IMG/VR virus record: IMGVR_UViG_3300023117_001979
Reading direction: 5' to 3' (one strand)
Length of the DNA stretch: 20,000 bases
Origin: an uncultured virus (IMG/VR IMGVR_UViG_3300023117_001979)
Taxonomy: Duplodnaviria; Heunggongvirae; Uroviricota; Caudoviricetes
Shown: positions 170 to 19,802 of the stretch, one piece after another
How positions within the stretch are numbered: position 1 is the stretch's first letter
Layout of the letters: each line of letters begins with the position of its first letter
Translations under genes and position numbers: made by a program
Notes under the pieces: generated by a model
Told to the model about the DNA's origin: nothing
Database searches by the model: none
Seen by the model: the letters and a program-made list of their open reading frames with translations, nothing else

Positions 170-502
170 TTGAGTAGCAAAAGAAAGCAAAGTAAATCAA
201 CTACATGCTCCTGGGGCGATATAGTGCTTACTACTAAACAACTAGAATTTGCCAAACGGCAAACACTGAAAGAGCTCAAATCTTTGAATCTTTTTGTTAA
301 GAACGGTGTAAACTTACACTCTACTGGCTCAGCAGAAGAAAAAAATGCTGATACGGAGTTAGTAAGGACAGCACTGCAAAGTATTGAAAACATGGATATA
401 ACTCAGTCTAGTGTAGCCATCTTAATTTCTGCTTTACACCGCTTAGGTGTGGAAGCAAAGCTAGATGCTATCTTTGACTTAGAAGATTTGACTCCTGTAT
501 AA
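170..502 (+). CDS. Hypothetical protein (110 aa)
   Basis: ORF with TTG start (uncertain) and GGTGA at 152-156. Its TAA stop is the TAA of the first ATAAGTG. Confidence 0.65.
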   Translation: MSSKRKQSKSTTCSWGDIVLTTKQLEFAKRQTLKELKSLNLFVKNGVNLHSTGSAEEKNADTELVRTALQSIENMDITQSSVAILISALHRLGVEAKLDAIFDLEDLTPV

Positions 503-661
503 GTGCGGAAAGATACACAACCACACAAAATTCGCAAAGATTATGCGGCTAGGCTTGAAGCCTGGCGAACAAAACAAACGCAGCTAGCAGACTACAATAA
601 AGAAATGTCTCGTGCTAAACAGCGTACTCTTACAGATTTTTTCCCTGAACCTGAAGAGTGA
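503..661 (+). CDS. 52-aa microprotein with C-terminal PIP box (QRTLTDFF)
   Basis: Too short for the ORF track. Starts at the GTG of ATAAGTG and fills the 502-665 gap. Translation MRKDTQPHKIRKDYAARLEAWRTKQTQLADYNKEMSRAKQRTLTDFFPEPEE; QxxLxxFF is encoded at 620-643. Confidence 0.8.
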   Translation: MRKDTQPHKIRKDYAARLEAWRTKQTQLADYNKEMSRAKQRTLTDFFPEPEE

Positions 662-664
662 TAA

Positions 665-1357
665 GTGGCCAAAATTAAAATGGACCCGATTACTGGTAAT
701 ATTACCCATATCGATGGAGTACAATTACTGGTTCCAATATCAATGATAGATTGGACAAAGGCGACTCAGACTTATACTTCTTCATGTATTGAATACATAG
801 AAGAAAGCTACAAAGCACAAGAAAAATGGAACAGTGCTATTGGTGATTCTGAGATACTTAGTCTAGTCAAAAAGCATGTTGGAAAAGAAATTCTTGAAAG
901 ATTACAAGAAGAAAAGGGCTTTAGCTTGGTTATCGTCAGACCTACTGAAAAGTGGGAAGAGCCAGGTTATGAAGAGCCTCAAGCAGAAGGATTGGTCAAT
1001 TTAAACGACCTTAGACGAGTTGAGATAATTTGTATCGCAACTGACCTTCTAAAAACTAAAGTACGCCGTCAAAAAACTAGCATAAACAATGCTACTAAAC
1101 GGCGTCAACTTGCTATTTCTGTTGAAGAAATACAAGCAGAATGCAGAAAACAGTTGAGTTTCCCAACGAAAACTGTCTCTAGAGTCAAGGGCGTTAAGGG
1201 TTCTGAAGAACCTCATGACACTGATAATATTGATGAATTTTATCTAGAGAGCATTCCCGATATTCTTATTCAGGAAGGATGGAAACGGTATACAACTGAA
1301 AACTCCTTCGTACCCGAAGTAAACAATCACCCTTTTTGGGGGTCTTTGGATGAGTAA
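665..1357 (+). CDS. Hypothetical protein (230 aa)
   Basis: ORF starts at the motif GTG; no recognisable domain. Confidence 0.8.
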   Translation: MAKIKMDPITGNITHIDGVQLLVPISMIDWTKATQTYTSSCIEYIEESYKAQEKWNSAIGDSEILSLVKKHVGKEILERLQEEKGFSLVIVRPTEKWEEPGYEEPQAEGLVNLNDLRRVEIICIATDLLKTKVRRQKTSINNATKRRQLAISVEEIQAECRKQLSFPTKTVSRVKGVKGSEEPHDTDNIDEFYLESIPDILIQEGWKRYTTENSFVPEVNNHPFWGSLDE

Positions 1358-1772
1358 GATTTGCACCATTAGAGGGTGCAGAAGAAAGGTTCCTTCATTC
1401 ATTAAAAATAATCCTAAGGGCGAGCCGCTTTGTGCAGTTCATCATGGGTTACAAGTTAGAATGGAAGAAGATAGAATCACTTGTACTATTATTGATTGTA
1501 CAAGCATGGCTTATTCAGGCGGTCTGTGCAAAAATCATAGCCACAGCCCGCGTGAACCCCGTATGGACTTAACAAAGTGGCATACAGAAACAAGACAGGA
1601 CAAACTAAAGCTGACTCTAGGTAATGTACTTAGAAACAAGCGTCCTTTGCACTTGCTACAAATGAACGACTTCAATTGTCTTTATTGTAATGGAGATGCT
1701 CATAGCTCTCTTGGCGCAAGTCCCCCTCATTGTTGCCCAGTTTGCTGGGCGAAGATTGAAAAAATTAATTGA
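1350..1772 (+). CDS. Cys/His-rich multi-zinc-finger protein
   Basis: Two C-x4-C...C-x2-H units (CTIRGC...LCAVH; CTIIDC...GLCKNH) plus CLYC...CPVC. 8-nt ATGAGTAA overlap with the upstream stop. Confidence 0.75.
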   Translation: MSKICTIRGCRRKVPSFIKNNPKGEPLCAVHHGLQVRMEEDRITCTIIDCTSMAYSGGLCKNHSHSPREPRMDLTKWHTETRQDKLKLTLGNVLRNKRPLHLLQMNDFNCLYCNGDAHSSLGASPPHCCPVCWAKIEKIN

Positions 1773-1779
1773 GGAATAA

Positions 1780-2004
1780 GTGTTGATGACAATAATTCAA
1801 CTCATTGTGTTTACCAGTATTGCTCTTGGCTTACAGCACCTGTTGTACAAATATCAGGTGCTAGGCACATACACTAGCTGGTATCACCGCATCAAGCACC
1901 GAGGTGCTGGATGGGAATATTGGAGGAACCTGGTTATCCTATGGATAGCATTGGTACTCTCTACTGAAATTACCTACATCATAGGGTTGAGGCTTTATGG
2001 TTAA
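1780..2004 (+). CDS. Small membrane protein, two predicted TM helices
   Basis: Hydrophobic stretches IIQLIVFTSIALGL and LVILWIALVLSTEITYIIGL; motif GTG start. Confidence 0.7.
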   Translation: MLMTIIQLIVFTSIALGLQHLLYKYQVLGTYTSWYHRIKHRGAGWEYWRNLVILWIALVLSTEITYIIGLRLYG

Positions 2005-2527
2005 GGAAATTGAAGGAATTGTAAGTCCACCCACCGTAGTGTGGGACAGGTATACTGACAACTCGTTACGAACCAATAGCTTGGGAAATATCCCTGACGG
2101 TGAGTATCGCGTAGTTGATGAGTTTATTTGTAATTTTGAAAAGACTTACACACCCGGAGGCGATAATGACTGGAAAGAAGGAGATGCTCCTTGCCAGTAC
2201 ATCTATTCCGATACGCGAGTTACTGTCAGGTCAGGAATGTTTGACCTAGGACAACTTTTACAAGCCGCTGAAGAGCTAAAGACAAAATCCCACTATTGGG
2301 GTGTTTATCTTGAAATCGCTAAGTTTGTAAGGAGGCCTCGTGGTTCTGCTCCTAGTGAGTGGAATAACTGTAAAGACCAAAACATGCCGGGAGCTACTCG
2401 GCGTGATGGAACAGTTATACCTCCGTCTGTCATTGTAAGATGCAAGCGCAATCGATACAACGAAATGACAGAAGAAGAAAAACAAATGTGGGCCGAAGGC
2501 CTCATTTACATCGCATGGGGGAGCTAA
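1997..2527 (+). CDS. Hypothetical protein (176 aa)
   Basis: ATG start with GAGG upstream; 8-nt overlap with the previous stop. Confidence 0.75.
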   Translation: MVKEIEGIVSPPTVVWDRYTDNSLRTNSLGNIPDGEYRVVDEFICNFEKTYTPGGDNDWKEGDAPCQYIYSDTRVTVRSGMFDLGQLLQAAEELKTKSHYWGVYLEIAKFVRRPRGSAPSEWNNCKDQNMPGATRRDGTVIPPSVIVRCKRNRYNEMTEEEKQMWAEGLIYIAWGS

Positions 2528-2531
2528 CCTC

Positions 2532-2840
2532 ATGTCAGAACCTCAAATTGTAAGAGGGTCTTGGCCATATGGAGTGGTTGAGATGGATGACGGAAGAATT
2601 TTCGTCAAAGTAATAAATTTCCCTGTAACCGATGATTCGGGATATGCAGGTGAAAGTATGTGGGTCATTTTGACTGAAGGAGATGAATTTAATGGGGTTG
2701 GTACACTAAACAACCAGCCTCGACACTCTTCTATCGAACTTGGCTCATACATTCGATTCGCGGGTGGTACAGAAACCACAGAGCCGCGTTTTGTTCAGGT
2801 GGTAGCTTACCCACCTACTCAAGGTGAGAACCATGAGTGA
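2532..2840 (+). CDS. Possible DUF2314/YegJ-like protein
   Basis: GESMWV...GVGTLNNQP...IELGSYIRF resembles the E-x-MWV...G-x-L-x-N-x-P pattern of that family (from memory). GGGGAG SD upstream. Confidence 0.5.
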   Translation: MSEPQIVRGSWPYGVVEMDDGRIFVKVINFPVTDDSGYAGESMWVILTEGDEFNGVGTLNNQPRHSSIELGSYIRFAGGTETTEPRFVQVVAYPPTQGENHE

Positions 2841-3249
2841 AAGAATCGACTTGACTCAATTTGAAGGGTTAGGAGACTGGGAGGTTGTACCTCAACCAGA
2901 TGGTGAATACGCTATCGTAACAGGAAGAGATAATTCCTCCTTGGAAGAAGCGAATACTATCGCCAAACTACCTACTTTAATTGCTGAGTTGAAGAGATGT
3001 TATGACTTGATTGACAAGTTTCACTTTATGTATGGAGACTCTTTTGAAGAGTCTTTTTGGATTGCGACATGCAAGCCGGATGGCGAAGGCCAGTGCAGTG
3101 TGACTGTCAACTCATATGAAATTCTCATGCAAATGGTAGCCGCCAATGTGGTGGAAATACCAGAATATAGTCATGACCACACAGAACTCATTCTTTTAGA
3201 ATGCGAGTGTGGTGTGACTCATGAAGAATGGCTTGAAAGTAAAAACTGA
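2833..3249 (+). CDS. Hypothetical protein, paralog of 19239-19757
   Basis: Start moved to ATG 2833 behind AGGTGA SD, with ATGAGTGA overlap. N-terminal RIDLTQFEG..GDWEV..IAKLPTLIAELKRCYDLID is shared with 19239. Confidence 0.75.
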   Translation: MSERIDLTQFEGLGDWEVVPQPDGEYAIVTGRDNSSLEEANTIAKLPTLIAELKRCYDLIDKFHFMYGDSFEESFWIATCKPDGEGQCSVTVNSYEILMQMVAANVVEIPEYSHDHTELILLECECGVTHEEWLESKN

Positions 3250-3258
3250 AGGCTATAA

Positions 3259-3975
3259 GTGTCACCATGGAATATTGTTGATAACGATTTGGAGATTCTA
3301 AGACATGAGGATTGCCTCGGTGCTCTTGGTTTCTTCGAGTTCCTCCTAAGTGAGGGACTAAATGAGAACGATGTAATACCAAGTAATCATCGTGAAAACT
3401 TCTATCAAGTTGGTAGGGGTGATAGAGTACCATTTTTGGTAGTGAGCAACAACCTAAGCAAAACTGTTGCCCCCGAAGTTATTCGAGGTTTTGATAACCT
3501 CTTTCAAGAAGGGGTAAATCTAACAGGAGCTATGCTTACTTCTGATGATACTCACAAAGAGCTCAAGAGAAAATTTGAGCAACGGGAGTTCCAGCCTGGT
3601 CAAGAAATGATTGAAAAGGGACTCCTAGTAGAGTGCATTTTTTGGTATAGGGCGCGTCAACTAAGGACTCGTCGACCAAACTTGAAGCACACTGAGATTT
3701 TCGCCACTGTAAATGGTGAAATGGAAATTCTCAAAGAAGATATGAAGAATTTCATTGATTTTACAATTCAAACATCAATGATGAGCTTCGTTAATTATCT
3801 CGAATCGCATGGCTATGAAGGAACTGATGCTAATGCGATTAAGGTCACTATTGTAACTCTTCATTCTCAAGCAGGCGTGATTGTTCACCCTGAAGAAGAT
3901 GCAGAAATGCTTCGTGAAAACGAAAGAAAGGCTGCCAAGAAGAAGAAGACTTACTTTGACCCCTCATTCATGTGA
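3259..3975 (+). CDS. Hypothetical protein (238 aa)
   Basis: ORF starts at the motif GTG. Confidence 0.8.
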   Translation: MSPWNIVDNDLEILRHEDCLGALGFFEFLLSEGLNENDVIPSNHRENFYQVGRGDRVPFLVVSNNLSKTVAPEVIRGFDNLFQEGVNLTGAMLTSDDTHKELKRKFEQREFQPGQEMIEKGLLVECIFWYRARQLRTRRPNLKHTEIFATVNGEMEILKEDMKNFIDFTIQTSMMSFVNYLESHGYEGTDANAIKVTIVTLHSQAGVIVHPEEDAEMLRENERKAAKKKKTYFDPSFM

Positions 3976-3982
3976 GGTATAA

Positions 3983-4774
3983 GTGGGACTAGAAATTAAC
4001 CTACAATTTACTGCAAAATCCGTGGCGGAGCTTAGAGAACAGCTGACAGCTGCTTTGAGTGAGCTCAACGGAAGCGCAGTGGTGGAAACACCAAACAAGG
4101 CTACGAAAACCGAGAGGCCTAGTGCTGAGACTCCTAAAAAGGAAAAGAAGCCTAAAAGGCCTAAGAAAACGGTAAGGCGACCTAAAGCGCCAAAGGCTAG
4201 CTTAGAATGTAAAAGCTGCAAAGCAACGAGCACCCCTCAATGGCGCCGTAAAACGGCTCCTGAAGGGCCTCTTTGTAATGCATGTCACATGAAGCTATAC
4301 AAAGCTGAAAGAGCGGCCAAAAATAGCCCAAAAGAGAGTAGTGCAGAACGGTCTAGGCGGATTCGCCAAGAAAAGATTGGGTCTGCAGCTGCCTCAAAAA
4401 AGAAAAACAAACCTAAGGTAGAGAAGCTAGAGTTTGAACCTGCTGAAAAAATCGAAGCGGATATGTCCACTGAAGCATTTTACTTGTGGGCCCAGTCATA
4501 CTTGCCAGGAATGGTGATGCGTGACAAAACCTTCCTTGTTGCTTCTAAGGTCATTGAGACCTGGTTTACTACCCTAAGGCCACAGTCTGAATATGACAAG
4601 TGGTGTCTTAAAAATTTACAAACATTTACTGATGAAACTCGTAAGATGTTTGAAGTTTACCAAAAGGTACACCCTACCATTTTGATGATTCAAGATGCCG
4701 GGGACAATGTTGTACTTATGGTGAATAACCCGTCGGCCCTGACTTTTTCAAAGTTAGAAGGCCTACTGGAGTGA
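3983..4774 (+). CDS. GATA-type zinc-finger protein with flanking Lys/Arg-rich segments
   Basis: CKSCKATSTPQWRRKTAPEGPLCNAC at 4208-4285 is C-x2-C-x18-C-x2-C with the TPxWRR and LCNAC GATA signatures. Motif GTG start. Confidence 0.85.
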   Translation: MGLEINLQFTAKSVAELREQLTAALSELNGSAVVETPNKATKTERPSAETPKKEKKPKRPKKTVRRPKAPKASLECKSCKATSTPQWRRKTAPEGPLCNACHMKLYKAERAAKNSPKESSAERSRRIRQEKIGSAAASKKKNKPKVEKLEFEPAEKIEADMSTEAFYLWAQSYLPGMVMRDKTFLVASKVIETWFTTLRPQSEYDKWCLKNLQTFTDETRKMFEVYQKVHPTILMIQDAGDNVVLMVNNPSALTFSKLEGLLE

Positions 4775-4778
4775 TTTT

Positions 4779-5126
4779 ATGACTGAAGAAGAGGAAATCG
4801 AAGTTTATTTCCCTAAAGGTGAACACTTAGGTGTTCACATAGAATCCCCTGGAGCAGCCCTTTTGATGGTTACTCCTCTAGAGGGTGAGCGTTTCAGTCA
4901 AAGATTCGTAGTGTTGCTCCATTTTGGCGAAAACACATACAAGCTTGTACTTTCATGGTCCCCTTCCCGCGCAGGGGAGGAACGCATTCCATGGGGGACT
5001 TTAGATGGGAAGGAAATCGACCCAACTAAGCACCCACTATTTGGAACGAAAAATGAACAAGCTGGTTTATATCACAAAACTCTTCCACCGGGCTGTTATG
5101 TAGTCCGAGAAGAAATCAAGGTATGA
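4779..5126 (+). CDS. Hypothetical protein (115 aa)
   Basis: ATG start behind GGAGTGA; C-terminal HKTLPPGCYVVREE. Confidence 0.75.
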   Translation: MTEEEEIEVYFPKGEHLGVHIESPGAALLMVTPLEGERFSQRFVVLLHFGENTYKLVLSWSPSRAGEERIPWGTLDGKEIDPTKHPLFGTKNEQAGLYHKTLPPGCYVVREEIKV

Positions 5127-5133
5127 CCAATAA

Positions 5134-5331
5134 GTGAGTAACGAAAGTACTTTACAAACTAGTCTGCTAGAGGCTTCAAACGAAAACAATCGTCAATTGA
5201 AGCGAATTGCAGATAGCTTGGAAGAACTCCTTTCAATGATAAAGGGCGTTCAACCAGCTGAACTTGCGAAAAAGGCAAAGGAGCACAAAAAAGCTCAATC
5301 AAATCTGAAAAGGAGGCGAAATAATGAGTGA
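5134..5331 (+). CDS. Small basic coiled-coil protein
   Basis: Motif GTG start; LKRIADSLEELL heptads and a basic tail. Confidence 0.7.
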   Translation: MSNESTLQTSLLEASNENNRQLKRIADSLEELLSMIKGVQPAELAKKAKEHKKAQSNLKRRRNNE

Positions 5332-6634
5332 CGAATTATTACAAATGGCCCAAAGTTTGGGTTGTTCACCTACATTCGTTGAATTTGAAATGCTCCCGGT
5401 TACCTATTCGCAAATTGTACTGGTGGCGGGTCTGATTATTACTGACTCTCACCAACAAACTGGACCTAATTATGATGCCAACCAGCGTACAAGGTTTGAC
5501 CTTTGTACTGAAGTAGGTGATAATGGTCTTGCGATTATCTTCAACAACCATAACGGTGGTACTACTGGAGAAATCGTTTTCGACGCGCCAAAGTTTAGGC
5601 GTTCAAGTCGACACATAATTAATGCTCAAATTGACATGTCGCCAGGAGACTTTAGGCCTATGGTTCGTAACCGAAGGGCCACTTTATCTATTGGTGACAT
5701 GGGCTTGATTATTAGCAGTACCGATGACAATGAAATGCTACAAAAATACGGTCAACGAGCGGTTCGACGCTATGGTTATCGTAATTACAACAATCGTAGT
5801 CACTTTACTAGTCTAGGATTTAATGTAAACTGCAACCAAGGAATTCAAATTCAATATTCTTGGAACAAAAATGAGCATGTTTATGGCTGGTCAAATAATA
5901 CAGGTCACGCACAAACTACGGTTATTCCGTTCTTTGGAACAGAAAAGCCGACTAGAATTGAGCCTGTATTTGAAGCCAAATTCCCTTATGACACATTTAA
6001 AAAAATGTTGAACAGTTCGGGAAGAGCCAAAGATAGTGGTGGAGCTCTTTATTGGAGCTACAACCCTAAAACAAAGAAAATGTACACTGTTGGCGCATAT
6101 GCTAACGGTGAAATTTCAAAAGAAGGTCGTACATACAATACTTCAGCTTGGGTACATAACAGTGTAACTGAGCTAATTGCAGGGACAATTCCCTACCGGC
6201 CTTTTGGTGAAGCAATTGTAAACCGATACAAAACAGCTACCCATGCTGGATTTGGCATGGATGCACATGGTCGGCAGTACATTTGTATTTACTACCCATG
6301 GGGTCATATTCGATATAACCATATTACTTTTTCACATGGTGTAATCGAAGATGAGTCTGTGAGTGATATTTCGGGGCCAAAGGTCTCGTTAGAAAAGAAT
6401 GCACCTGCGTTCTTTGAAAACTACGATTTATCATTTGAGTACTCGCCTTATACCGCATCTGAGGAATTATTTCTCAACAAGTGGTACGCAGTATTCAACG
6501 AATACCAAGAAGAGCAACTTTCGCGGCCTAAACTGCCGAAAAAAGGTGAAATTCTTCAATGGTATATTTGTTTTTGTCAGAATGGAGATGTTACTGATGA
6601 GGACGCACTGCTAGCTCAGAAAATTTTGAGCTGA
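5324..6634 (+). CDS. Hypothetical protein (436 aa)
   Basis: Long ORF with AGGAGG SD and ATGAGTGA overlap; no confident domain. Confidence 0.85.
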   Translation: MSDELLQMAQSLGCSPTFVEFEMLPVTYSQIVLVAGLIITDSHQQTGPNYDANQRTRFDLCTEVGDNGLAIIFNNHNGGTTGEIVFDAPKFRRSSRHIINAQIDMSPGDFRPMVRNRRATLSIGDMGLIISSTDDNEMLQKYGQRAVRRYGYRNYNNRSHFTSLGFNVNCNQGIQIQYSWNKNEHVYGWSNNTGHAQTTVIPFFGTEKPTRIEPVFEAKFPYDTFKKMLNSSGRAKDSGGALYWSYNPKTKKMYTVGAYANGEISKEGRTYNTSAWVHNSVTELIAGTIPYRPFGEAIVNRYKTATHAGFGMDAHGRQYICIYYPWGHIRYNHITFSHGVIEDESVSDISGPKVSLEKNAPAFFENYDLSFEYSPYTASEELFLNKWYAVFNEYQEEQLSRPKLPKKGEILQWYICFCQNGDVTDEDALLAQKILS

Positions 6635-6641
6635 GCTATAA

Positions 6642-7046
6642 GTGGCTGAAAAATTGCTAAAAATTGGATGGAGGCATTCTGATGAGTTATGGAAAAATAT
6701 TTCCGACGAGTCAAGGCCTGCAATCCGTGAGTTTGTTGCTGTTATAGCAAATATCAAACCACTAAGAACAAGCGAAGATATTGAGGAGTTACTTGCAAAA
6801 GAGCTCCCTGATTTTTTTGACCAACGATTTAAACAGCTAACTGCTCGTACTACACACCCATTTTGGAGTGGGAACGGGGAGTTTAGTACTGTGACCAACC
6901 GCATCCTTTACCTGGGCCTTATCAATGAAAATATTGACAAGGAGATAGGAATTTTCAACATCATTATGCTACAAGACATTGTGTCTGCGGCTTTGGTGCG
7001 ATATAACGAACACATTATGCGGATGGATTTGGATGTCACTGGATAG
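6642..7046 (+). CDS. Hypothetical protein (134 aa)
   Basis: Motif GTG start. Confidence 0.75.
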   Translation: MAEKLLKIGWRHSDELWKNISDESRPAIREFVAVIANIKPLRTSEDIEELLAKELPDFFDQRFKQLTARTTHPFWSGNGEFSTVTNRILYLGLINENIDKEIGIFNIIMLQDIVSAALVRYNEHIMRMDLDVTG

Positions 7047-7542
7047 GTTAAATGAAGCCTTTACAGACGAAGTACCTCCATCCCAGGTCATAGTTAACAC
7101 CACAACTTACATTCGAAGCGAATATTTCAAAGACGGGTCGAGAGTTTTCTTCAGCCCGCTTGACTTCGCGTTGAATGGTCCAAAAGAAGGAACGATAATG
7201 GAAAGAGACTGCCCAAGCATGGGCTTATGCAAAGTAAAGGTGCTGAGTAAGCATTATGAGCATAATTCTGAAACCCCGTCCTTCGTGGAATGTCTCGTTA
7301 CTAAAAATAGTCGAGAATACAAAGTGTGGCTCATTGTTAGAGCTACACCGACCGTTATTGATAAATTTCGATTCCAATACATGGCAAGGATGCCTAATCA
7401 CAATTTTGCTATTATTCCTGACTATGTACTTGAAAACAAACTGCCGAAAAATCCCCACACTCCCTACAATGATGCGAGCTTTGGGTTCGCCGCAGTTACT
7501 GGAATTTCCATTGGAACACGAATCCCTGAGGATTTAACATGA
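7033..7542 (+). CDS. Hypothetical protein (~169 aa)
   Basis: Start probably ATG 7033 (MSLDRL...), which overlaps the upstream stop, rather than 6979. Confidence 0.7.
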   Translation: MSLDRLNEAFTDEVPPSQVIVNTTTYIRSEYFKDGSRVFFSPLDFALNGPKEGTIMERDCPSMGLCKVKVLSKHYEHNSETPSFVECLVTKNSREYKVWLIVRATPTVIDKFRFQYMARMPNHNFAIIPDYVLENKLPKNPHTPYNDASFGFAAVTGISIGTRIPEDLT

Positions 7543-8003
7543 CAATGAAAGATGATAACGAAAGAATTTTGGAGTTAATCCAAGAGCGAATGAAAGTAGG
7601 CGTAAAGCGCTACGGACATGGTCTCAAAAAAGAAGATGACACAACGCAATATGGCACTAAGACTGATTCTTGGACCGAAATGGGACTAGAAGAGGCTCTT
7701 GACTTGTCTATTTACTTGTCAACACAATTGCTTAGAATCCTCGACCGAGAGGCTAAGCAAAATGTTGCTATGATAAAAGAAGCGAATGTTGTCATGAGAA
7801 AAAAAATACAACGGTATGAAATGATTCATGCAGAAGCTATTCAAGACGAAACCATGCCTCACCCACACGAATGTACTTGTGGGGGAGATACGGGCTGTCA
7901 AATGATAAAGCCTGGCTGCTTGAATATTCGATTTCATGAAGCGGATATTTGTGACAAAGATTGTCACATCTGTCAGAATCCTGACGACTTCCCGCTTCTT
8001 TAA
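7539..8003 (+). CDS. Possible all-alpha NTP pyrophosphatase (MazG-like) domain with Cys-rich C-terminal tail
   Basis: ER...G.KRYG...W.EM.LEEALDLSIYL has the EExxD helix typical of virus-encoded all-alpha NTP-PPase-like proteins. Tail HECTC...C...C...C...CHIC. ATGA overlap. Confidence 0.5.
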   Translation: MTMKDDNERILELIQERMKVGVKRYGHGLKKEDDTTQYGTKTDSWTEMGLEEALDLSIYLSTQLLRILDREAKQNVAMIKEANVVMRKKIQRYEMIHAEAIQDETMPHPHECTCGGDTGCQMIKPGCLNIRFHEADICDKDCHICQNPDDFPLL

Positions 8004-8011
8004 GCCAATAA

Positions 8012-8491
8012 GTGTTACCTCGTATCACAAACCATATTACCCGTTTGTGGGGCCACAGGAAAAATGTCACTGATGACAGTAATCCTGGGCAAATGAAGAG
8101 TGTTGAAGTTAGTGAAGTCAAAATCACTGAACAAACGCTCGCTAACTTGAAGGAAGCAGTAAATCGAGCTGAAGAACGAATTGCTGCTTGTCGAAAGCGC
8201 TTCGGAAAAGAAGCACTAGAGGACATGGACCGTCGCTATGCTGAACGGAAAAATCCTCTCCCAAAGGAAGAGCAAGATGCACTATCTAAGGCACTTCCTA
8301 GGCTGCAATTGTGGCCTAGTAACCGACAAGGTGAACATCAATTGAAGATTTTTGCTTTTGAGGTAAATGACATGGACCCTGCAACTGAACCTAGTAAGCC
8401 TATTCTTGACGCTACTAAAAAATCAGTTGAAAGTAACCTACCTGACGAAAGGAAAGGTGGCTTCGACGGTCTAGGTTCACTCTTTGGGTGA
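8012..8491 (+). CDS. Hypothetical protein ending in an archaeal ribosomal-stalk-like tail (GLGSLFG*)
   Basis: Motif GTG start; extreme C-terminus ...GGFDGLGSLFG. Confidence 0.75.
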   Translation: MLPRITNHITRLWGHRKNVTDDSNPGQMKSVEVSEVKITEQTLANLKEAVNRAEERIAACRKRFGKEALEDMDRRYAERKNPLPKEEQDALSKALPRLQLWPSNRQGEHQLKIFAFEVNDMDPATEPSKPILDATKKSVESNLPDERKGGFDGLGSLFG

Positions 8492-8499
8492 ACATATAA

Positions 8500-10269
8500 G
8501 TGGAAGAATTTGATATTTTTCTTAACTACCCTAACTTGTTTCAGAGCAATGTGAGGCCTAGCAACTGTGTTATTGGAACTATTCCAGTGACTCGTATGGC
8601 CGCTATGCTTGGACAAGAAAGGAGCGAAAGCGAAATAGTTGCAGCCCCCGTTGAAGAAGATAGTTACTATCTTTCTTGGGGTTCTGCCGCAGATGGACAA
8701 CACCGATGGCAAAACCGTGGCTCAAAAGCCTGTGTAAGAACCTTAGGTCCCATTAAAAGGTTAGAAAATGATAGTTACCAATTTAAGGTATTAACCCAAT
8801 TGGGAATAACTAAGGCAAGTGACTCTGGCTACTATTATGGTAGTCACAATAACAAAAATGCGTTTGGCGATATAGTCTGCCGAGACCGAATTAACCAAAT
8901 ATGGCTTGATTGCGTCCCTGGACTAGAAGATGCTATGAAAGAATTTGTAAGAAATGCTCACACACGAAGAGAGAGACCACCTTTGGCAGGTTCAACTCCG
9001 GGCTCTATTACAATTCATAATAACGGTGAAGATACTTGTAGGGTTGCTATTACTATCACTTCTGAGCAAGCAGCTATTTTGAGTCAAAGGTTGACTCAAG
9101 AATATACTTCGCTAAAAGATGAAAAAATGAGTGAATACACATTAATTACTCATGAAAGGCTAGGAATGAATTCGGGTAAAATCCCTTATCGTTACAACAG
9201 GCCTGAACAATATAGGAATGAATATTTTCGTAGTGAGTCCTATGACCGTATGAACATTAAAACGCTCATAGTGAAACAAGATGGAAAGAAGCGCAAAGCT
9301 GGGCATTCTGAATCGCTCGGTATTATTGGGCTTTCTCACGGCGAAAGAAAACAAAATTTTCCTATTGACCTATACTACAATGAAGAGCAAGAAGTAAGTC
9401 TTGAAGCTGTGTTATCATTTAAGCAGTATTCCATTGTAGTGTCTGTTGACAGAACCGGAAGAACCCAGATTTCGTCTACACGAAACATGGTTTTTCTGCC
9501 ATATGTTAGCGGACTCGTGCTTGTAGCAAAGCCGAAAAAAATAACCCCTGGTGCTACTTTTCAGAGTGAGCTTCTTACTAGAGTCCTTGACCAAACTAAG
9601 AAGCGACAAATCAAGGGTGGATATAGAGGACCTTATCAAGGTCTATCTAAACTAACATACGGAGAAGAGACTTTGTTTCAAGTACGCTTTGCAAGTGGAC
9701 TTAAAGCAATTGCCAGCGGGGAACCAATTAAGAAATTTAAGCTGGATATTCCCCCTCGACTTCCTCTCAGTATGGAAGACTATGTCGAAATCGAAAGGCC
9801 AATGACCAATATCAAACCGATTGAAGTTGGGCATTTGAACCTATACCGTATTTCTGAATCGCCTAGAAAGCTGGTTACAGGAGAAATCCTTAGTGACTTA
9901 CAGCTACCTAGTATGCCTGATTTTATGCTAGCTATTGACACCGACATTCGTATCGAAAGTAACGACGAATATGTTGGTGGTAGCGAGTGCTCAGGCGATT
10001 GTCAACATGAGAATGTCAACATGCCTATTCCTCCTGGCCTTTATGTGGTCAAAAAGAAAGAGCGATGTGTAATTTCTCACGACCCTGGGCGACCAGAGTA
10101 CAATGTTGGATTTGGAAGCATTTGTAATGATGGTATTACGATTCGACGCCTACTATCACAACTAAACATTCACTATGACCAATTTAGAGGGAACATGGTT
10201 GGGGACGGCACAAAGGTTCAGGAAACTGACCTGTCTGTTTCTGCTGGTTCTTTGCTTGGTCGTTTCTAG
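8500..10269 (+). CDS. Large hypothetical protein (589 aa)
   Basis: Longest ORF in the window, motif GTG start; contains HENVNMPIPPGLYVVKKKE. Confidence 0.85.
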   Translation: MEEFDIFLNYPNLFQSNVRPSNCVIGTIPVTRMAAMLGQERSESEIVAAPVEEDSYYLSWGSAADGQHRWQNRGSKACVRTLGPIKRLENDSYQFKVLTQLGITKASDSGYYYGSHNNKNAFGDIVCRDRINQIWLDCVPGLEDAMKEFVRNAHTRRERPPLAGSTPGSITIHNNGEDTCRVAITITSEQAAILSQRLTQEYTSLKDEKMSEYTLITHERLGMNSGKIPYRYNRPEQYRNEYFRSESYDRMNIKTLIVKQDGKKRKAGHSESLGIIGLSHGERKQNFPIDLYYNEEQEVSLEAVLSFKQYSIVVSVDRTGRTQISSTRNMVFLPYVSGLVLVAKPKKITPGATFQSELLTRVLDQTKKRQIKGGYRGPYQGLSKLTYGEETLFQVRFASGLKAIASGEPIKKFKLDIPPRLPLSMEDYVEIERPMTNIKPIEVGHLNLYRISESPRKLVTGEILSDLQLPSMPDFMLAIDTDIRIESNDEYVGGSECSGDCQHENVNMPIPPGLYVVKKKERCVISHDPGRPEYNVGFGSICNDGITIRRLLSQLNIHYDQFRGNMVGDGTKVQETDLSVSAGSLLGRF

Positions 10270-10282
10270 TTGAGATATATAA

Positions 10283-11659
10283 GTGACTGATGAAAATTCA
10301 GAACAAATTGATGCTAACTCCCAGGAGGGAGTAGTATTCGCTAATAGCAAAATGCCTGCTCTAGGATGGCTTGTTAACTATGCTATCTATGACGGCAGCG
10401 TTCCATTGGCTGACTTTGTCAGCGGACTATACCGACATGGTTATTCTATCAATGGTGAAGGCTATCGCGAAAACAACGAGCAAAGCGCGCACTTTAGGAG
10501 TATGGTTCGTTCATTTATTCCTAAGCCCCGACATGGTGGTAGTGCCTTTGCACATGCTGTTCGTTCACTGCAAACGAAAGCACAAAGAGTCGTCTATGAC
10601 GACCCTGAAGGCCCGCTCTCTAACAATAAAGAAAAGATGCGGGTAAAGCCTGGAGACCGATATGGTTACACTGTTCAGTGGACCATTATCACTATCCGTA
10701 AAAATAGAGAATATGCTTTGCAACGAGTCCGTCGTGGCTATGTTGAAGGGCAGTCTCGCCAACAAGTAGCTATGGAAACCCCGTATCGAGTAAGGATTGA
10801 TAGTCAAAATACCAATACTTTTACTCGCAAGTGGTTGACCACTCTACTAAATCATATTTGGGATGGAGAAGCTGCTCCGAATACTAGCGAACTACGCAAT
10901 TCTGTATTCGTCGAGCCTATGGAAGATTCTGCTCTCCCTGAAGACGGTCGCTTTATGCGTCAAGCACAAGAGCGACTTCGAAATGCATATGTTAATGCGT
11001 CAACTTGTATTGACGATGACAGCATTCGAAAAATGGCTAGAGAGTCACTATGTAGGATGGGTGGTATTTTACCACATGCATCTAGTGGTGGCGTTTACTT
11101 TATCCACGACCCTGAAAAGACACGAGAAGGGCTCTTGAACAACTTGAGCACTGTTATTGAATACTTTGCTGAAGTGGCCAATCAACGCAATCGTGATGCT
11201 ATGTGGGTCGAAAGAGCCGTTCCTTGGTGGGAAACCATTAACGAGGAACAGGAAGATGAAGTCCCAATTACTGCTCATTATGAGTCAGGTATGCGTACTC
11301 TTACCTATGGTTCGTCAGCAAAGCAGCTAGACGACATTAGGAAAATGTATATCTCGACCATGCAAAATGCACAGGCTAAGTATTATGGCCTTGTTCACAA
11401 AATGCTACGAGAAGGAGTAATTGATGAAGAATTACTTGCGACAAAGAAAGTTGAAGCCATGAGTGCGCTTAACAAGACCGAAAGGGACCTTGGGAAAGAC
11501 ACTGTTGAGGCTGCGACTGCTCAATATGAAGAAGTTGTCGTAGGACTTACCTCTCGCTTTAACGATATTTGGACGCCTGATGAAAGAGCTTCCGAAGAAG
11601 AGCGAAAGCGAGTTGATGACCGCATTCACAACTTGTTGAGTTTGCGGTTGTCGTCTTGA
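10283..11659 (+). CDS. Possible DUF6744-like protein (458 aa)
   Basis: LGWLVNYAI...P.P....SAFAHAV...GGVYFI pattern recalled from that family of mobile-element proteins; motif GTG start. The ORF is solid, the family assignment tentative. Confidence 0.55.
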   Translation: MTDENSEQIDANSQEGVVFANSKMPALGWLVNYAIYDGSVPLADFVSGLYRHGYSINGEGYRENNEQSAHFRSMVRSFIPKPRHGGSAFAHAVRSLQTKAQRVVYDDPEGPLSNNKEKMRVKPGDRYGYTVQWTIITIRKNREYALQRVRRGYVEGQSRQQVAMETPYRVRIDSQNTNTFTRKWLTTLLNHIWDGEAAPNTSELRNSVFVEPMEDSALPEDGRFMRQAQERLRNAYVNASTCIDDDSIRKMARESLCRMGGILPHASSGGVYFIHDPEKTREGLLNNLSTVIEYFAEVANQRNRDAMWVERAVPWWETINEEQEDEVPITAHYESGMRTLTYGSSAKQLDDIRKMYISTMQNAQAKYYGLVHKMLREGVIDEELLATKKVEAMSALNKTERDLGKDTVEAATAQYEEVVVGLTSRFNDIWTPDERASEEERKRVDDRIHNLLSLRLSS

Positions 11660-11668
11660 GGACTATAA

Positions 11669-12787
11669 GTGTGGATTACACAAAACACAAGATGTAAGGC
11701 TATCAAGAAAGATGGCCTCAGGTGTAAGCTGGTAGCAAAACCAGGAGATGTTCGTTGTGAACATCATGCCTATGAGGTAATGTCGTTCTTACGAAACCCC
11801 TTTCTTGCTATCGGACTTTACACTCAATATTTTCCAAAGAATCACCATCCGGCTTGTGACAGAACGGGCCAAAATGATTGTGATTGTGAAAATAAAACGG
11901 TAGGACAACTACTGTTAGAAAGTTTCAATCGTGCGCTCCAAGCTTCACTTGAAGACACACCGGAGTTTAAGCGAGAATATCGCTCTCGGCATGAATTGAT
12001 AACTCAAATTGTAGGAATGACATATGACGACATGACTGTTGACGATATGTGGCTTCCTCCTGAATCCCATTGGAGGCAATTTCGTTTTCAAATATGGGAC
12101 TCAAGGGCTAATCGTCTTGTATGGATTAAGTGCTTCGATAACTTTCGAAACAACGACCATGGCAAGGGTGCCCTACTACAACGCCTTAGGGAAACAAAAC
12201 CTATCAAGGTGTTTTACATGACTTCTAAGTTTCTCAATCCAAGAAATGTTGGGCCTGACCCTACTTCTAAAATGGGAGTAAAGAAGTTTAAGAAAAAGAA
12301 TCTAATGAGACATTACAACAACAATTTCCTTGGACAGGAGTTGTATTTTGATGTTGATTTCAAAATGGATTCTTTTGATGACTCGGCTCAAATGACAAAA
12401 AGAGTCGTTGACTGGCTGGGTCGTAAATTTGGCGTTACTCCTGAAGACCTTACTATCGTGTTTAGCGGGGGTAAGGGCTTCCATGTAATTTGGTACGGAT
12501 GGGATATTTCTCATGCTGAACCTCACCATCGGCAAACCTATGAAAATATAATTTCAGGTAAAGCTGGTAGGGTTCCATCTGTCTATCTTCAAAGATTACA
12601 CAAGAAGATTAAGACGGAATACATTGAAGAATTAAAATCGGAAGGAATTCTAGTTGACTATGAAGTAACTAGAGACCCAAGAAGAATCATTCGATTACCA
12701 GGAAGCATTCACCACAAAGGAAGGCTATGTAAGATAATTAGCTATGAAGAGCTTGATAACTTCGTGCCTCCTGAGCCAATATGGTGA
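11669..12787 (+). CDS. priS: Archaeo-eukaryotic primase (PriS-like catalytic subunit) with N-terminal CCCH-type Zn finger
   Basis: AEP motif I ELYFDVD, motif II VFSGGKGFHV, motif III and downstream VDYEVTRDPRRIIRLPGSIH. N-terminal RCKAIKKDGLRC...RCEHH. Motif GTG start. Confidence 0.85.
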   Translation: MWITQNTRCKAIKKDGLRCKLVAKPGDVRCEHHAYEVMSFLRNPFLAIGLYTQYFPKNHHPACDRTGQNDCDCENKTVGQLLLESFNRALQASLEDTPEFKREYRSRHELITQIVGMTYDDMTVDDMWLPPESHWRQFRFQIWDSRANRLVWIKCFDNFRNNDHGKGALLQRLRETKPIKVFYMTSKFLNPRNVGPDPTSKMGVKKFKKKNLMRHYNNNFLGQELYFDVDFKMDSFDDSAQMTKRVVDWLGRKFGVTPEDLTIVFSGGKGFHVIWYGWDISHAEPHHRQTYENIISGKAGRVPSVYLQRLHKKIKTEYIEELKSEGILVDYEVTRDPRRIIRLPGSIHHKGRLCKIISYEELDNFVPPEPIW

Positions 12788-12793
12788 GAATAA

Positions 12794-13480
12794 GTGACTG
12801 ATAAAAATTGGCACAAAGTTTCACAGGAAGTAACCTGTGCTCTATGCGACAAGGTCGTAAAGAGAAACGCTAACAATCAAAAATATTGTTCAGTTAAATG
12901 CCAACAAAAGGCCTTTGTAAAGGAATACCAATACCGACTTAAATGCGAAGTTTGTAATGAACATTTTCTATCGCAGCATAGTACGACTCCAACTTGTAGC
13001 AAATTTTGCGGACATGTACTGAATATGACTAACCGGCAGTTATACACCGACGAGGAAATTATTCACCTTGCTTTATTGAACCCTGGATATGGGTTTCGGG
13101 CATTCTGTGAAAAGGTTAAGTGCTCATCAAATAACAACACTCCGTATGAGCTACAAAGAATTCCTTATATTTTTGAACAATGTAAAAAAGAACTAAAGCT
13201 TGATTTACACGCACATTTGAATAACCCTGATTACATGGAAACCATGTACATAGATGAATGGATTGCTAAAGGAAGGCCTCGTGCTGGTACTAAGCATGTT
13301 GGTCAGCAAGGGTCTCGGATGAATCAGCGTAAAATTATGGCTACTTACCGTGAGTACGAAAAAACGAAAAAATATGACGGTAATAACCGCCGTACACACA
13401 GGAAAGTAAAGGTGTTCCCTGAATTTAACTGGGGGAGCATTGAAGAACGCACTCCCTCCTCCGATAACGAAGAGGAGTGA
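12794..13480 (+). CDS. Protein with two tandem treble-clef-like Zn fingers
   Basis: CALC...KYCSVKC and CEVC...TCSKFC; no HNH catalytic motif seen. Motif GTG start. Confidence 0.75.
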   Translation: MTDKNWHKVSQEVTCALCDKVVKRNANNQKYCSVKCQQKAFVKEYQYRLKCEVCNEHFLSQHSTTPTCSKFCGHVLNMTNRQLYTDEEIIHLALLNPGYGFRAFCEKVKCSSNNNTPYELQRIPYIFEQCKKELKLDLHAHLNNPDYMETMYIDEWIAKGRPRAGTKHVGQQGSRMNQRKIMATYREYEKTKKYDGNNRRTHRKVKVFPEFNWGSIEERTPSSDNEEE

Positions 13481-13487
13481 TGTATAA

Positions 13488-14060
13488 GTGAGTTTAGACC
13501 GACTAGACCAAGTTGCTGATAACGGAATCATGAATGAGACCATTCAGCGTTACAGGGAAGAATCAGCGCAGCTCTATGCAGCTATTGACACCCTTAAACA
13601 AATTGGTAAGAGAGAAAATTACATAAAAGCACCTAAGTTTGCTGAAATTATACTTAGGCCTTGGCTAACTGACTGTGGTTATATTAACCTAGAAGATGTT
13701 GTCAAGCGCCTTACAGAGCTTGGTGTTGATGCTAATACTATCTTTGAACACTACGGTCATCAACTGTCGGACGCAAGGCCGGCACAATATGATGAAACTA
13801 CACTTGCAAGAGTGATTCGCAACAGCTATCGAAATTATAGTGGCATGCGAAAACTGAATAAAACTGATTACATAAAGGTAAACCCTGATGGTGACGGAGA
13901 CCTAAGTATCAGTAATGTACTTTCAGAGCTTGCAAGAATAAGGGCTGAGTATGACGCTTGGCATGAAATTAAGACTCTGCTTCGAGTAGGAAAAGTCGAA
14001 ATTTCAGTAATTGAAAATCCTTCACCACCCATGCGTAAAAAACTGGGTTTGGAGGACTAG
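13488..14060 (+). CDS. Hypothetical protein (190 aa)
   Basis: Motif GTG start. Confidence 0.8.
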   Translation: MSLDRLDQVADNGIMNETIQRYREESAQLYAAIDTLKQIGKRENYIKAPKFAEIILRPWLTDCGYINLEDVVKRLTELGVDANTIFEHYGHQLSDARPAQYDETTLARVIRNSYRNYSGMRKLNKTDYIKVNPDGDGDLSISNVLSELARIRAEYDAWHEIKTLLRVGKVEISVIENPSPPMRKKLGLED

Positions 14061-14068
14061 TAAAATAA

Positions 14069-14473
14069 GTGAGCACAATTATTGTGAACATAGAATTAGC
14101 CGAAGGATGGACAGTTTTTACTGACCCCAAAACCGGCTCAACCCACCTAGAATACATTCTAGAAGAGGGTGATAAAGAATGGATTACTGCCAAATTTTCG
14201 ACTCCTGGTCGAGATGACTATGGCACTGAACACCATAACAGCGCTAGTATCATTATCGAAAATGAAGAGCGCGAAGAATCGGTCAAGACTAGAATTTCAG
14301 TCGCTGACCCAAGAGGTGGGTTCTTGATGGAGTCTCGTGTAAACGAAACCGGGCACTATCTGAGCGTACCTACTGCTAAAGACTCTCTTCCCCATGTTGA
14401 TGACATGGAAGAAAGAGGAAGAGGTTTTTACAAGCTTACTTACGCCCCTGCAAAGGGGGAAAGAAATGAGTAA
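14069..14473 (+). CDS. Hypothetical protein (134 aa)
   Basis: Motif GTG start; contains ISVADPRGGF. Confidence 0.75.
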   Translation: MSTIIVNIELAEGWTVFTDPKTGSTHLEYILEEGDKEWITAKFSTPGRDDYGTEHHNSASIIIENEEREESVKTRISVADPRGGFLMESRVNETGHYLSVPTAKDSLPHVDDMEERGRGFYKLTYAPAKGERNE

Positions 14474-14828
14474 GAAAAGAATAACTGCTGACTTTACAAA
14501 CGCACTAACTGGTTCGTTTGAAACTGAAGTTACTTTGTATTCTCAAACCAAGCATGAATGGGGGTTTACTACAATGGCAAAAATCGATACGGGCGCTGAC
14601 CGCTCATCAATTGATTTGCGTCTTGCTAACGCACTAAGACTCCATCAAATCGGTGAAATTACCGTAAGAAATGCTATGGGTAAACAAAAAAGAAGGACTG
14701 TGCTGTTGTCACTGAAAGTTTTCGGCTCAAAGAAAATAGTTGAAGTGACGGTGGCTAACCGTCGAAAGATGACCACTCCCTTCATCATTGGCATGGATTT
14801 AGTCATGGAGGATGAAGATAGTGAGTGA
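14466..14828 (+). CDS. Retropepsin-like aspartic peptidase (RimK/LysX-associated 'ATP-dependent Zn protease' type)
   Basis: AKIDTGADRSSID catalytic motif, VRNAMG..KRRTV, and ANRRKMTTPFIIGMD. Start probably ATG 14466 behind GGGGGA, with ATGAGTAA overlap. Confidence 0.8.
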   Translation: MSKKRITADFTNALTGSFETEVTLYSQTKHEWGFTTMAKIDTGADRSSIDLRLANALRLHQIGEITVRNAMGKQKRRTVLLSLKVFGSKKIVEVTVANRRKMTTPFIIGMDLVMEDEDSE

Positions 14829-15006
14829 ATTCCCTTACGAAGAATCCTATGGACCTGCTTACAACTACGAAGTAGGCTACCTTGAAGGATTGAAGGAGGC
14901 GCATCGTCTCGCATTGAATCAACAGAACACAGTTCTAGCTGATTTTCTCAAGAAGAGAATCGAAGAGCAAAAGAAGTCTGTAAAGGAGGAGATGCCTGAT
15001 GAGTGA
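14821..15006 (+). CDS. Small hypothetical protein
   Basis: Start GTG 14821 or ATG 14812 behind GGAGGA; YEVGYLEGLKEA; overlaps the upstream stop. Confidence 0.6.
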   Translation: MSEFPYEESYGPAYNYEVGYLEGLKEAHRLALNQQNTVLADFLKKRIEEQKKSVKEEMPDE

Positions 15007-15166
15007 CTACTTAATTGAAGGAAGTAGTTCGTCGCAAATAAGCCCTCACAGCTCTTCTTGGAAACTGTATGGTAGGACTGATAACCTACAAGAAGCTCGT
15101 GAAATCGCCGCAAAGGCATTCATGAAAACCAACTACCGCATTATTAGGATTCGAGAGAAGTCCTAA
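14999..15166 (+). CDS. 55-aa hypothetical protein, below the ORF-track cutoff
   Basis: AGGAGGAG SD, ATGAGTGA overlap, fills the gap before the motif at 15174. Translation MSDYLIEGSSSSQISPHSSSWKLYGRTDNLQEAREIAAKAFMKTNYRIIRIREKS. Confidence 0.65.
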   Translation: MSDYLIEGSSSSQISPHSSSWKLYGRTDNLQEAREIAAKAFMKTNYRIIRIREKS

Positions 15167-15177
15167 AGCGAGTATAA

Positions 15178-15777: not shown

Positions 15778-15836
15778 TCGCCTATAAGTGAAACCATGGA
15801 AATAGAAACATGGAAACAAACTTTGGAGGAAGGAGA

Positions 15837-16142: not shown

Positions 16143-16149
16143 CTAATAA

Positions 16150-17041: not shown

Positions 17042-17047
17042 TAATAA

Positions 17048-17659: not shown

Positions 17660-17667
17660 CCCAATAA

Positions 17668-18472: not shown

Positions 18473-18479
18473 AGTATAA

Positions 18480-19231: not shown

Positions 19232-19238
19232 CTAATAA

Positions 19239-19757: not shown

Positions 19758-19772
19758 TTGATATAAGTGAGA

Positions 19773-19802
19773 GAGGAACCGAAAGGTTCCTCATTTTTTT
19801 TT
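19773..19802 (+). terminator. Intrinsic terminator: 8-bp stem, GAAA loop and T9 tail; possibly bidirectional
   Basis: GAGGAACC (19773-19780) GAAA GGTTCCTC (19785-19792), then A and nine T. Lies between convergent genes. Confidence 0.85.

Follow-up and report, generated by a model that had tools for sequence, protein, structure and literature searches.

Locus and zinc finger

We studied the gene of a zinc finger protein, P0001, in 20,000 nucleotides of DNA from an uncultured virus (IMG/VR record IMGVR_UViG_3300023117_001979). This whole stretch, called the window below, lies at the end of a 135,676-bp metagenome contig, and positions given without a locus or contig name refer to it. The gene belongs to a unidirectional block, starts with a GTG that completes a recurrent junction word, ATAAGTG, and is followed by a smaller open reading frame (ORF), as listed in Table 1. 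Its product carries a genuine GATA-type zinc finger, which occupies an exchangeable middle part of the protein (see below), whereas GATA fingers are regarded as a eukaryotic transcription factor family.

The first-pass annotation of this DNA, made from the sequence alone, had proposed a GATA finger on the basis of a C-x2-C-x18-C-x2-C pattern with a basic stretch behind it. Both were correctly seen: the finger has the letters CKSCKATSTPQWRRKTAPEGPLCNAC, and residues 73-145, i.e., the finger and the basic helices after it, hold 20 K+R against 6 D+E (net charge +14). The PF00320 model scored 32.0 bits on P0001 (gathering cut-off 26.8; E 8.9e-8), with residues 76-103 aligned to model positions 1-28 of 36; scores in relatives spanned 21-35 bits, the orthologue in locus L023 falling under the cut-off with 21.3. 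A search of the Protein Data Bank (PDB) with the profile of the 22-member family (see below) returned 17 sequences at E<=1, all but one of them GATA-type fingers, and the top matches were GATA-3 (4hc7, E 1.9e-12) and GATA-1 (3vd6, E 1.2e-11). The residues C76, C79, T84, W87, R88, C98, N99 and C101 were invariant across the 22 family sequences. The third position of C-N-x-C was A, R or K, and the residue after W-R (the second Arg of WRR) differed among relatives, being R, H, K, M, D or E.

An AlphaFold (AF2) model of P0001 was made from the family alignment; its mean predicted local distance difference test value (pLDDT) was 70, with ~72-81 in the finger. Local Foldseek superpositions of the finger on AreA, GATA-1, GATA-3, GATA-4 and AtGATA18 gave 1.8-2.6 Å over 33-38 columns with probabilities of 0.93-0.99, e.g., 2.1 Å over 34 columns for AreA (2vus, 50% identity), 2.1 Å over 36 columns for GATA-1 (3vd6) and 2.5 Å over 38 columns for AtGATA18 (8j48, 50% identity). 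The Pfam score, the PDB profile matches and the superposition at ~2 Å therefore confirmed the domain call.

Architecture of P0001

The finger is flanked by segments of different charge and predicted order (Table 1). The N-terminal residues were conserved in the family from codon 1 onward, and R123 and R128, in the basic helices, were invariant. The C-terminal domain was modelled with pLDDT ~84-91 over residues 161-260, and many of the last 100 residues were invariant. Its neighbours by VIA-align, with Z 5.0-6.3, were all winged-helix domains (E2F8, SSV1 F-112, SelB, kleisin and MarR), among them E2F8 4yo2 (Z 6.3, 3.7 Å, 83 aligned) and SSV1 F-112 2vqc (Z 5.9, 2.7 Å, 70 aligned). A complex prediction for this domain (residues 150-263) with the co-transcribed 115-aa protein gave a score of 0.01 (mark 0.32), values that speak neither for nor against a contact.

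Table 1 Features of the P0001 locus and of the end of the gene block in the window
Feature	Position	Strand	Basis and remarks
Junction motif TATAAGTG	3978..3985	+	Motif scan; ends in the GTG start codon of the GATA gene, the G of ATAAG being its first base
ORF of the GATA-finger protein P0001, 263 aa	3983..4774	+	Open frame, GTG start; stop included
N-terminal segment, residues 1-30, conserved helix 14-29	3983..4072	+	Conservation; AF2 block pLDDT 66-74; net charge -2
Lys/Pro-rich linker, residues 31-72, disordered	4073..4198	+	pLDDT <50 for residues 31-71; net charge +11
GATA-type zinc finger, C-x2-C-x18-C-x2-C, residues 76-101	4208..4285	+	Pfam, PDB profile, superposition
Basic helices after the finger, residues 102-145, counterpart of the GATA basic tail	4286..4417	+	Helices 99-113 and 120-140
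Acidic C-terminal domain, conserved, winged-helix-like, residues 155-263	4445..4771	+	Model and structure alignment; net charge -4
Downstream ORF, 115 aa, ATG start	4779..5126	+	On the RNA contigs of the GATA gene; syntenic in all relatives examined
Next junction motif AATAAGTG	5129..5136	+	RNA contigs over the GATA gene stop 4 nt upstream
Last motif of the + block, then hairpin GAGGAACC-GAAA-GGTTCCTC and T run (terminator-like), no gene	19762..19800	+	Sequence

The P0001 family and exchange of its DNA-binding module

The homologue search gave 22 cluster representatives, i.e., that of the query and 21 homologues, which were of metagenome origin throughout (JGI, Tara, ENA, Logan and NCBI). Each has PF00320, and they lie on contigs that reach 143 kb. 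When the search was limited to residues 68-128 it gave just the query's own cluster and two close relatives, and pattern scans of IMG/VR (589-aa protein; family alignment A1) gave no relative. Thirty metagenome loci encode a P0001 relative in one syntenic slot, 25 of them with the finger, and in many of these a ~100-aa recombinase-type DNA-binding domain (PF07508) is inserted in the linker. The finger is absent in the other five (L026-L030) and in the orthologue on a contig of a metagenome-assembled genome (MAG, see below); these proteins retain the N-helix and the C-terminal domain and hold one or two PF07508 domains between both ends, accompanied in L027 by HTH_23. The constant parts of the family are thus the two ends, and the DNA-binding middle is an exchangeable cassette. 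As members of the family exchange this module, it probably targets a lineage-specific site.

A search with the finger profile in 1.84 billion representative proteins found distant marine relatives with two or three fingers (P0053, P0059 and P0065), which share the C-terminal domain of P0001 (hhalign probability 98.7%, E 2.4e-16). The best matches outside the family were plant multi-finger GATA proteins with TPQWR and the x18 spacing. The assignment of the finger to the x18 type was right; fingers of the x18/TPQWR type are also known from plants beyond the proteins matched here. Among 301 genomes of the class of the MAG, PF00320 scored above cut-off on the element contig alone, and in none of 14 control genomes. 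The GATA family is therefore a family of the element, not of the host.

Some GATA-type fingers contact proteins, as the N-finger of GATA-1 does with FOG (PDB 1y0j), so the finger might be a structural or a protein- or RNA-binding zinc module and P0001 a protein that does not bind DNA specifically. A target for the finger was indeed not found: sites of the WGATAR type occurred at chance (77 in 26 kb against 78 +/- 8 expected) and formed no cluster. Nevertheless, T84, W87, R88 and N99, the signature residues on the DNA side, do not vary in the family, the finger has a strongly basic tail, and the modules that replace or join the finger, PF07508 and HTH_23, are DNA-binding domains, which makes a finger of this kind very improbable here.

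Occurrence and form of the junction word

The window contains 22 ATAAGTG sites, from 499 to 19769, all in the positive strand. With a preceding A or T (WATAAGTG) there are 21, likewise all in the positive strand, where 1.7 were expected, and none of 200 shuffles reached that number. The 6-mer WATAAG, which had been described as the repeated unit, was not enriched in the window (33 against 27.5 expected; 28 of 200 shuffles reached 33), i.e., the non-random unit is the longer, strand-specific WATAAGTG. The copy described at the start of the GATA gene itself is present, and in the 25 relatives that match from residue 1 the gene start reads ATAAGTGG, preceded by T, C, G or A. The core common to the family, ATAAGTG, kept to one strand in each of the 30 loci. 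Its preceding base, in a logo of 272 sites, was A in 46%, T in 22%, C in 18% and G in 14%, and no conservation was seen further upstream. Counted by locus type, G preceded the word at 34 of 233 sites, 32/197 in finger-bearing and 2/36 in finger-less loci.

On the MAG (1.2 Mb), 41 of 138 ATAAGTG occurrences fell on the two element contigs (81 kb), where they are confined to the unidirectional block and absent from the regions of the polymerase, PolB, MCM and recombinase genes. The word is thus specific to the unidirectional gene block of the element, and the host MAG does not share it as a motif. No clear strand-specific avoidance of the word inside genes emerged. In a codon shuffle its reverse complement occurred 7 times inside genes where 17.5 were expected, although this test also inflated control words two-fold; among 210 words of the same composition inside genes, ranked from the low end, ATAAGTG was 19th and CACTTAT 27th-51st. 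A literature search for ATAAGTG returned incidental primer-type matches only.

The GTG of the word opens an ORF of at least 40 aa at 225 of 266 sites, and at least 11 of the other 41 run into a stop within five codons. A pure translation-start context was rejected as an explanation, on account of these 41 sites, of several copies that precede conserved hairpins or terminators, and of the missing motif in the host MAG. At 15783-15812 the motif GTG opens a frame of five codons only; the real ORF starts at ATG 15810, ~22 nt further on, so that message would have a short leader.

RNA ends at the junction word

Parts of positions 3000-12999 were contained in 24 runs registered as metatranscriptomes, 18 of which had at least half of the words of this stretch. 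Assembled contigs of four runs, all under one habitat label, were mapped to the window, and the figures below come from 32 listed pieces of 80. Of these 32, 23 started 2-21 nt downstream of the G in a motif GTG (random expectation 0.9, maximum 6 in 10,000 trials), and 18 ended 0-35 nt before the next motif (random expectation 1.2). The RNA contigs over the GATA gene extended over 4001-5125 (run X3) and 3994-5125 (run X4) and included the 115-aa ORF, for which 12 orthologues were aligned and no Pfam family was found. A TATA box, with the start ~25 nt downstream, was rejected as an identity of the word, since RNA contigs begin as little as +2 to +13 after the G of GTG and the N-terminal residues of the protein are conserved. 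In RNA contigs, sequencing-adapter letters stood directly before window positions 4001, 5155 and 8520, each 18-21 nt downstream of the G in a motif GTG; they suggest many fragments that share such an end, possibly through a library effect close to genuine 5' ends.

The word also stands where no gene follows. The last copy of the block is followed by a perfect GC hairpin that faces a converging minus-strand gene (Table 1), and this place is 88% identical to L033:9907-9950 of the MAG, whereas the genes of both elements are just 66-74% identical. In run X1 an RNA contig agrees with the window as far as 19762, where this last motif begins, and continues with 29 unrelated AT-rich letters, which may represent a strain variant or a junction. 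In seven loci (L001, L003, L009, L014, L023, L025 and L032) the gene of a 637-aa AAA+ ATPase is followed by the motif and then by two small hairpins and a run of T7-8 (L001:4558-4640), one hairpin showing a compensatory change; the next gene opens with a variant, TATTAGTG, or, in two loci, with TATAAGTG. This arrangement represents a terminator unit or else a conserved RNA of ~50 nt. The word, occurring directly before terminators without a gene, is therefore not simply a gene start.

From these results, ATAAGTG marks RNA ends, by initiation or by processing, two modes that the contigs cannot separate. Initiation and the processing of long precursors by an endonuclease are equally possible, because the word stands before terminators and is abutted by upstream RNA ends.

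The finger and the junction word

The annotation had further proposed that the finger might bind the ATAAG of the junctions. In this case the finger would read (W)ATAAG(TG) as double-stranded DNA and P0001 would be a promoter-specificity factor of the element's own RNA polymerase. Several points speak for such a reader: ATAAG is GATAAG minus its G; the element encodes RNA polymerase A-like and H-like subunits (see below) and would therefore need promoter recognition of its own; the 272-site logo shows no upstream promoter element; the motif is element-specific (41 of the 138 MAG copies on 81 kb); and a small GATA paralogue lies in a motif-free region near the polymerase gene, the place expected for a factor made early.

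The composition of the word, however, does not follow a GATA site. G is the rarest base before ATAAGTG in the logo and in finger-less loci, and in finger-bearing loci its frequency is close to those of C and T. A GATA core leaves the invariant TG after ATAAG unexplained, GTG being as invariant as ATAAG, and the second Arg of WRR varies although the motif does not. The motif stays in L026-L030 and on the MAG contig, where the orthologue has dropped the finger or carries other DNA-binding domains instead. Moreover, the GATA gene is itself led by the motif, and the position of the word directly before terminators, with upstream and downstream RNA ends abutting there, fits a signal at the RNA level or a stop-start signal better than a plain promoter. 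In part the word behaves as a signal of RNA 3' ends. The proposed binding was thus not supported: the finger probably does not read the junction signal, and a promoter factor of this kind appears improbable to us.

The element and its host

The Pfam matches in the window comprised an AEP primase, RNase H, SAP, SWIM and a retropepsin-like domain. A PHROG scan of the window gave almost nothing and no structural match, a phage collection of 50,697 records gave neither a DNA match nor a tblastn match to it, and a tRNA scan of the window found none; with Rfam, no family reached the gathering score in the window or in locus L001. One relative turned up when species genomes were scanned; it lies on a 44,948-bp contig (C21) of the MAG of a Methanobacteriota archaeon. 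This contig is syntenic with the window, with 66-82% identity in segments, and its first 3.56 kb overlap MAG contig C15 at 99.8%; both together amount to ~78 kb.

Contig C15 encodes a 1672-aa Rpb1-type subunit (L035:11367-17086) of the fused RpoA/Rpb1 type, which has the complete set of five Pfam domains. In the PDB it matched archaeal Rpo1N best (4e-70), ahead of Pol II/III, African swine fever virus (1e-30) and bacterial beta' (1e-22), and an 87-aa RpoH/Rpb5-like protein is encoded directly upstream. The two contigs also encode PolB (916 aa, C15), MCM, two AEP primases, Rad52, RusA, a serine recombinase (C15) and GmrSD. An Rpb2-type gene was not found in the 78 kb of element contigs; the MAG has its own rpoB and a split rpoA' on contig C1. 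A polymerase A-type subunit in 78 kb without Rpb2 raises the question of a subunit swap into the host polymerase.

A second GATA-finger protein, of 131 aa, is encoded on C15 (L036:7352-7744) in the motif-free region near the polymerase gene. It has C-x2-C-x16-C-x2-C with TESPLWRK (Pfam E 2.6e-8) and an extra Cys-rich N-terminal stretch. Its family has 14 proteins on contigs of up to 145 kb; one member lies on a 133,848-bp contig, and a member of the large family likewise lies on a contig of 133,848 bp.

Magrovirus group D comprises Tara scaffolds described with archaeal-type PolB, thermosome, resolvase and RNA polymerase A and, in the part of the source consulted, without recognised morphogenetic genes, their nature as virus, plasmid or other being left undecided there (Philosof et al. 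2017, PMC5434244). A later report describes group D as lacking structural genes, as enriched in the cellular fraction alongside marine group II (MGII) archaea and as possibly plasmid-like (PMC10160649). The term "GATA" does not occur in the main texts of these two papers, nor do "promoter" and "zinc" in that of PMC5434244. Judged by gene content alone, the gene set of our element fits this group of MGII archaea. The element is large (~135 kb) and appears to be either a virus or an extrachromosomal element that is associated with marine planktonic archaea, and not a phage. Its description as a prokaryotic-style element was therefore right in kind and has to be amended to archaeal-associated, in view of the MAG synteny, the Rpo1N-like polymerase and the binning.

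The same genes had been called users of Shine-Dalgarno (SD) sequences, which holds in part. Of 94 GTG starts led by the motif, 26 had an SD-like word at -16 to -5, as had 42 of the 115 other starts, and the count for random places was 549 of 4500; such words exceed the random level but concern only 28-37% of starts, and RNA ends map at the motif itself. Among the 115 other starts there were 27 GTG and 21 TTG.

Domains of eukaryotic flavour (GATA, SAP, SWIM, retropepsin-like, the fused Rpb1-like subunit, MCM and Rad52) and a weak match in BFVD to a GATA zinc finger protein of a Marseillevirus metagenome bin (E 0.09) would be compatible with an element of a eukaryote, e.g., a small giant-virus-like agent of protists, in which the finger would be at home and the archaeal link a binning artefact. 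The genes, however, are one-stranded and tightly packed, with stop-start overlaps and a predominance of GTG/TTG starts, and SD-like words occur two- to three-fold over random (28-37% of starts vs 12%). The polymerase is nearest to archaeal Rpo1N, and the genome with which the contigs share a bin is archaeal and has a split rpoA. Because of these traits a eukaryotic element is highly unlikely, and the group D enrichment alongside MGII mentioned in the part consulted of PMC10160649 points the same way.

Two further places deserve mention. The most conserved gene of the block is a 436-aa ORFan (5324-6634), with a mean column identity of 77% in 12 elements and many invariant residues; it matched no Pfam or PHROG family. 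Directly upstream of the window, L001:480-2620 comprises 2.1 kb without an ORF of at least 100 aa, dense in long perfect hairpins, with a minimum free energy of -341.6 kcal/mol per 1001 nt (a value without shuffle control), no Rfam family and a 13-mer in 2.8 copies as its sole tandem repeat. This region may represent an origin or else several structured RNAs.

Proposed role of P0001

Taking these results together, we propose, with a probability of roughly 60%, that P0001 is a modular DNA-binding GATA regulator of the archaeal-associated element, and that its target is probably other than ATAAGTG, the word that marks RNA ends. The basic middle of the protein (linker, finger and basic helices) would bind double-stranded DNA at a lineage-specific site, e.g., an operator, a regulatory region or an origin. 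The N-terminal helix and the acidic winged-helix-like domain would make protein contacts, either in oligomerisation or with a conserved partner of the element or the host. The junction word would delimit the RNAs of the unidirectional block and yield leaderless or near-leaderless GUG-started mRNAs, whose ends may arise from an initiator-type promoter used by the polymerase of the element or from the cleavage of long precursors by an endonuclease. One such RNA unit, 3983-5125, would comprise the GATA gene and the 115-aa ORF.

Some observations weigh against this proposal. With the whole P0001 model, Foldseek returned nothing at E<=0.001 and GATA structures at E-values of 0.2-1, values that are explained by the finger being a small fraction of the model. 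The structural matches of the C-terminal domain are middling (Z<=6.3), a level that can reflect merely a common arrangement. No WGATAR cluster was present in the 26 kb scanned of the ~135-kb contig, and a candidate target site of the finger was not located there. The comparison of motif and finger across loci is not clean, because an element of the finger-less subgroup still has the second, small GATA protein (on C15), so co-occurrence cannot exclude a GATA reader. Several RNA pieces bridge motifs, and longer RNAs (or DNA) therefore exist too; the RNA evidence consists of assembled contigs of the one habitat label. Finally, the host assignment relies on one MAG bin, archaeal-type genes and the literature, not on demonstrated infection.

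Transcription control is the most likely role of P0001, and the main alternative is an adaptor of replication or partition, whose module would bind an origin or a centromere-like site while the winged helix recruits MCM or an AAA+ protein, in the manner of Cdt1. The conserved block around the GATA gene has an AAA+ ATPase, an AEP primase and an RNase H, and the element encodes MCM; the C-terminal domain is acidic, as expected for a protein-binding winged helix; and the ORF-poor, hairpin-rich 2.1-kb region lies 9 kb upstream of the GATA gene. The top of the Foldseek list also includes Cdt1 C-terminal domains (2rqq, 3a4c) and ORC-Cdc6-Cdt1-MCM (OCCM) complexes at E 0.2-0.9, but these matches are weak and mingled with many transcription factor winged helices, and repeated binding sites were not found. 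We consider such an adaptor unlikely, and the DNA-binding regulator remains the reading that we prefer.

A full-text literature search gave no report of GATA fingers in phages, archaea or archaeal elements. The family described here is a conserved GATA family in intron-free genes of an abundant archaeal-associated marine element, against the view of the family as eukaryotic, and it shows the GATA finger used as an interchangeable DNA-binding cassette beside prokaryotic ones. P0001 is, besides, small and tractable enough for a study of what GATA fingers bind outside eukaryotes. An archaeal element that combines its own polymerase A-like and H-like subunits with a word at which RNAs end and begin poses a larger question, and one that is now accessible to tests. 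A bolder idea, to which we attach a low probability, is that the element has a self-contained, eukaryote-like expression system made of its own polymerase subunits, a 7-nt message-end word and dedicated GATA factors (the 263-aa family and the small paralogue). If this were true, GATA fingers would be working transcription factors of the archaeal mobilome, either captured from algae or part of a pre-eukaryotic reservoir of a "eukaryote-specific" family.

Comparison with known systems

The element resembles magrovirus group D in its archaeal-type PolB, its RpoA-like gene and its serine recombinase, and in having no structural Pfam or PHROG match in the parts scanned; it differs in that the ~100 kb of element examined showed no thermosome gene.

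The likeness of ATAAGTG, as distinct from P0001, is to initiator promoters and stop-start junctions. Short initiator-type viral promoters that overlap the message start include the late TAAG of baculoviruses and the late TAAAT(G) of poxviruses, a comparable case being the yeast mitochondrial ATATAAGTA; non-segmented negative-strand RNA viruses have stop-start gene junctions. What the word shares with these systems is an element-specific 7-8 nt sequence at each gene start, RNA ends at it and polymerase genes carried by the element itself. Unlike the baculovirus, poxvirus and yeast mitochondrial promoters, it includes the GTG start codon, precedes terminators and is abutted by upstream RNA ends.

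Modular DNA-binding proteins of phages and mobile elements are assembled from the PF07508 domains of large serine recombinases and from HTH modules, and domains of these types occupy or adjoin the finger position in P0001 relatives. The relatives of P0001, in contrast, have no resolvase catalytic domain, and the constant part of their family is a novel N-helix with the C-terminal domain.

The closest likeness of the finger itself is to eukaryotic GATA factors (AtGATA18 8j48; AreA 2vus, 4gat), with which it shares the four-Cys x18 finger, T-P-Q-W-R, C-N-A-C and a basic tail, at 42-50% identity and ~2 Å root-mean-square deviation over 33-38 residues. The helix after CNAC reads H-M/L-K/R in the P0001 family and G-L/V-Y/R in the eukaryotic factors. 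P0001 is encoded, unlike these, in one continuous ORF with a GTG start in an archaeal-associated element; the parts that flank its finger, i.e., the N-helix and the acidic winged-helix-like domain, occur in the marine family only; and its finger, in contrast to theirs, swaps with prokaryotic DNA-binding domains.

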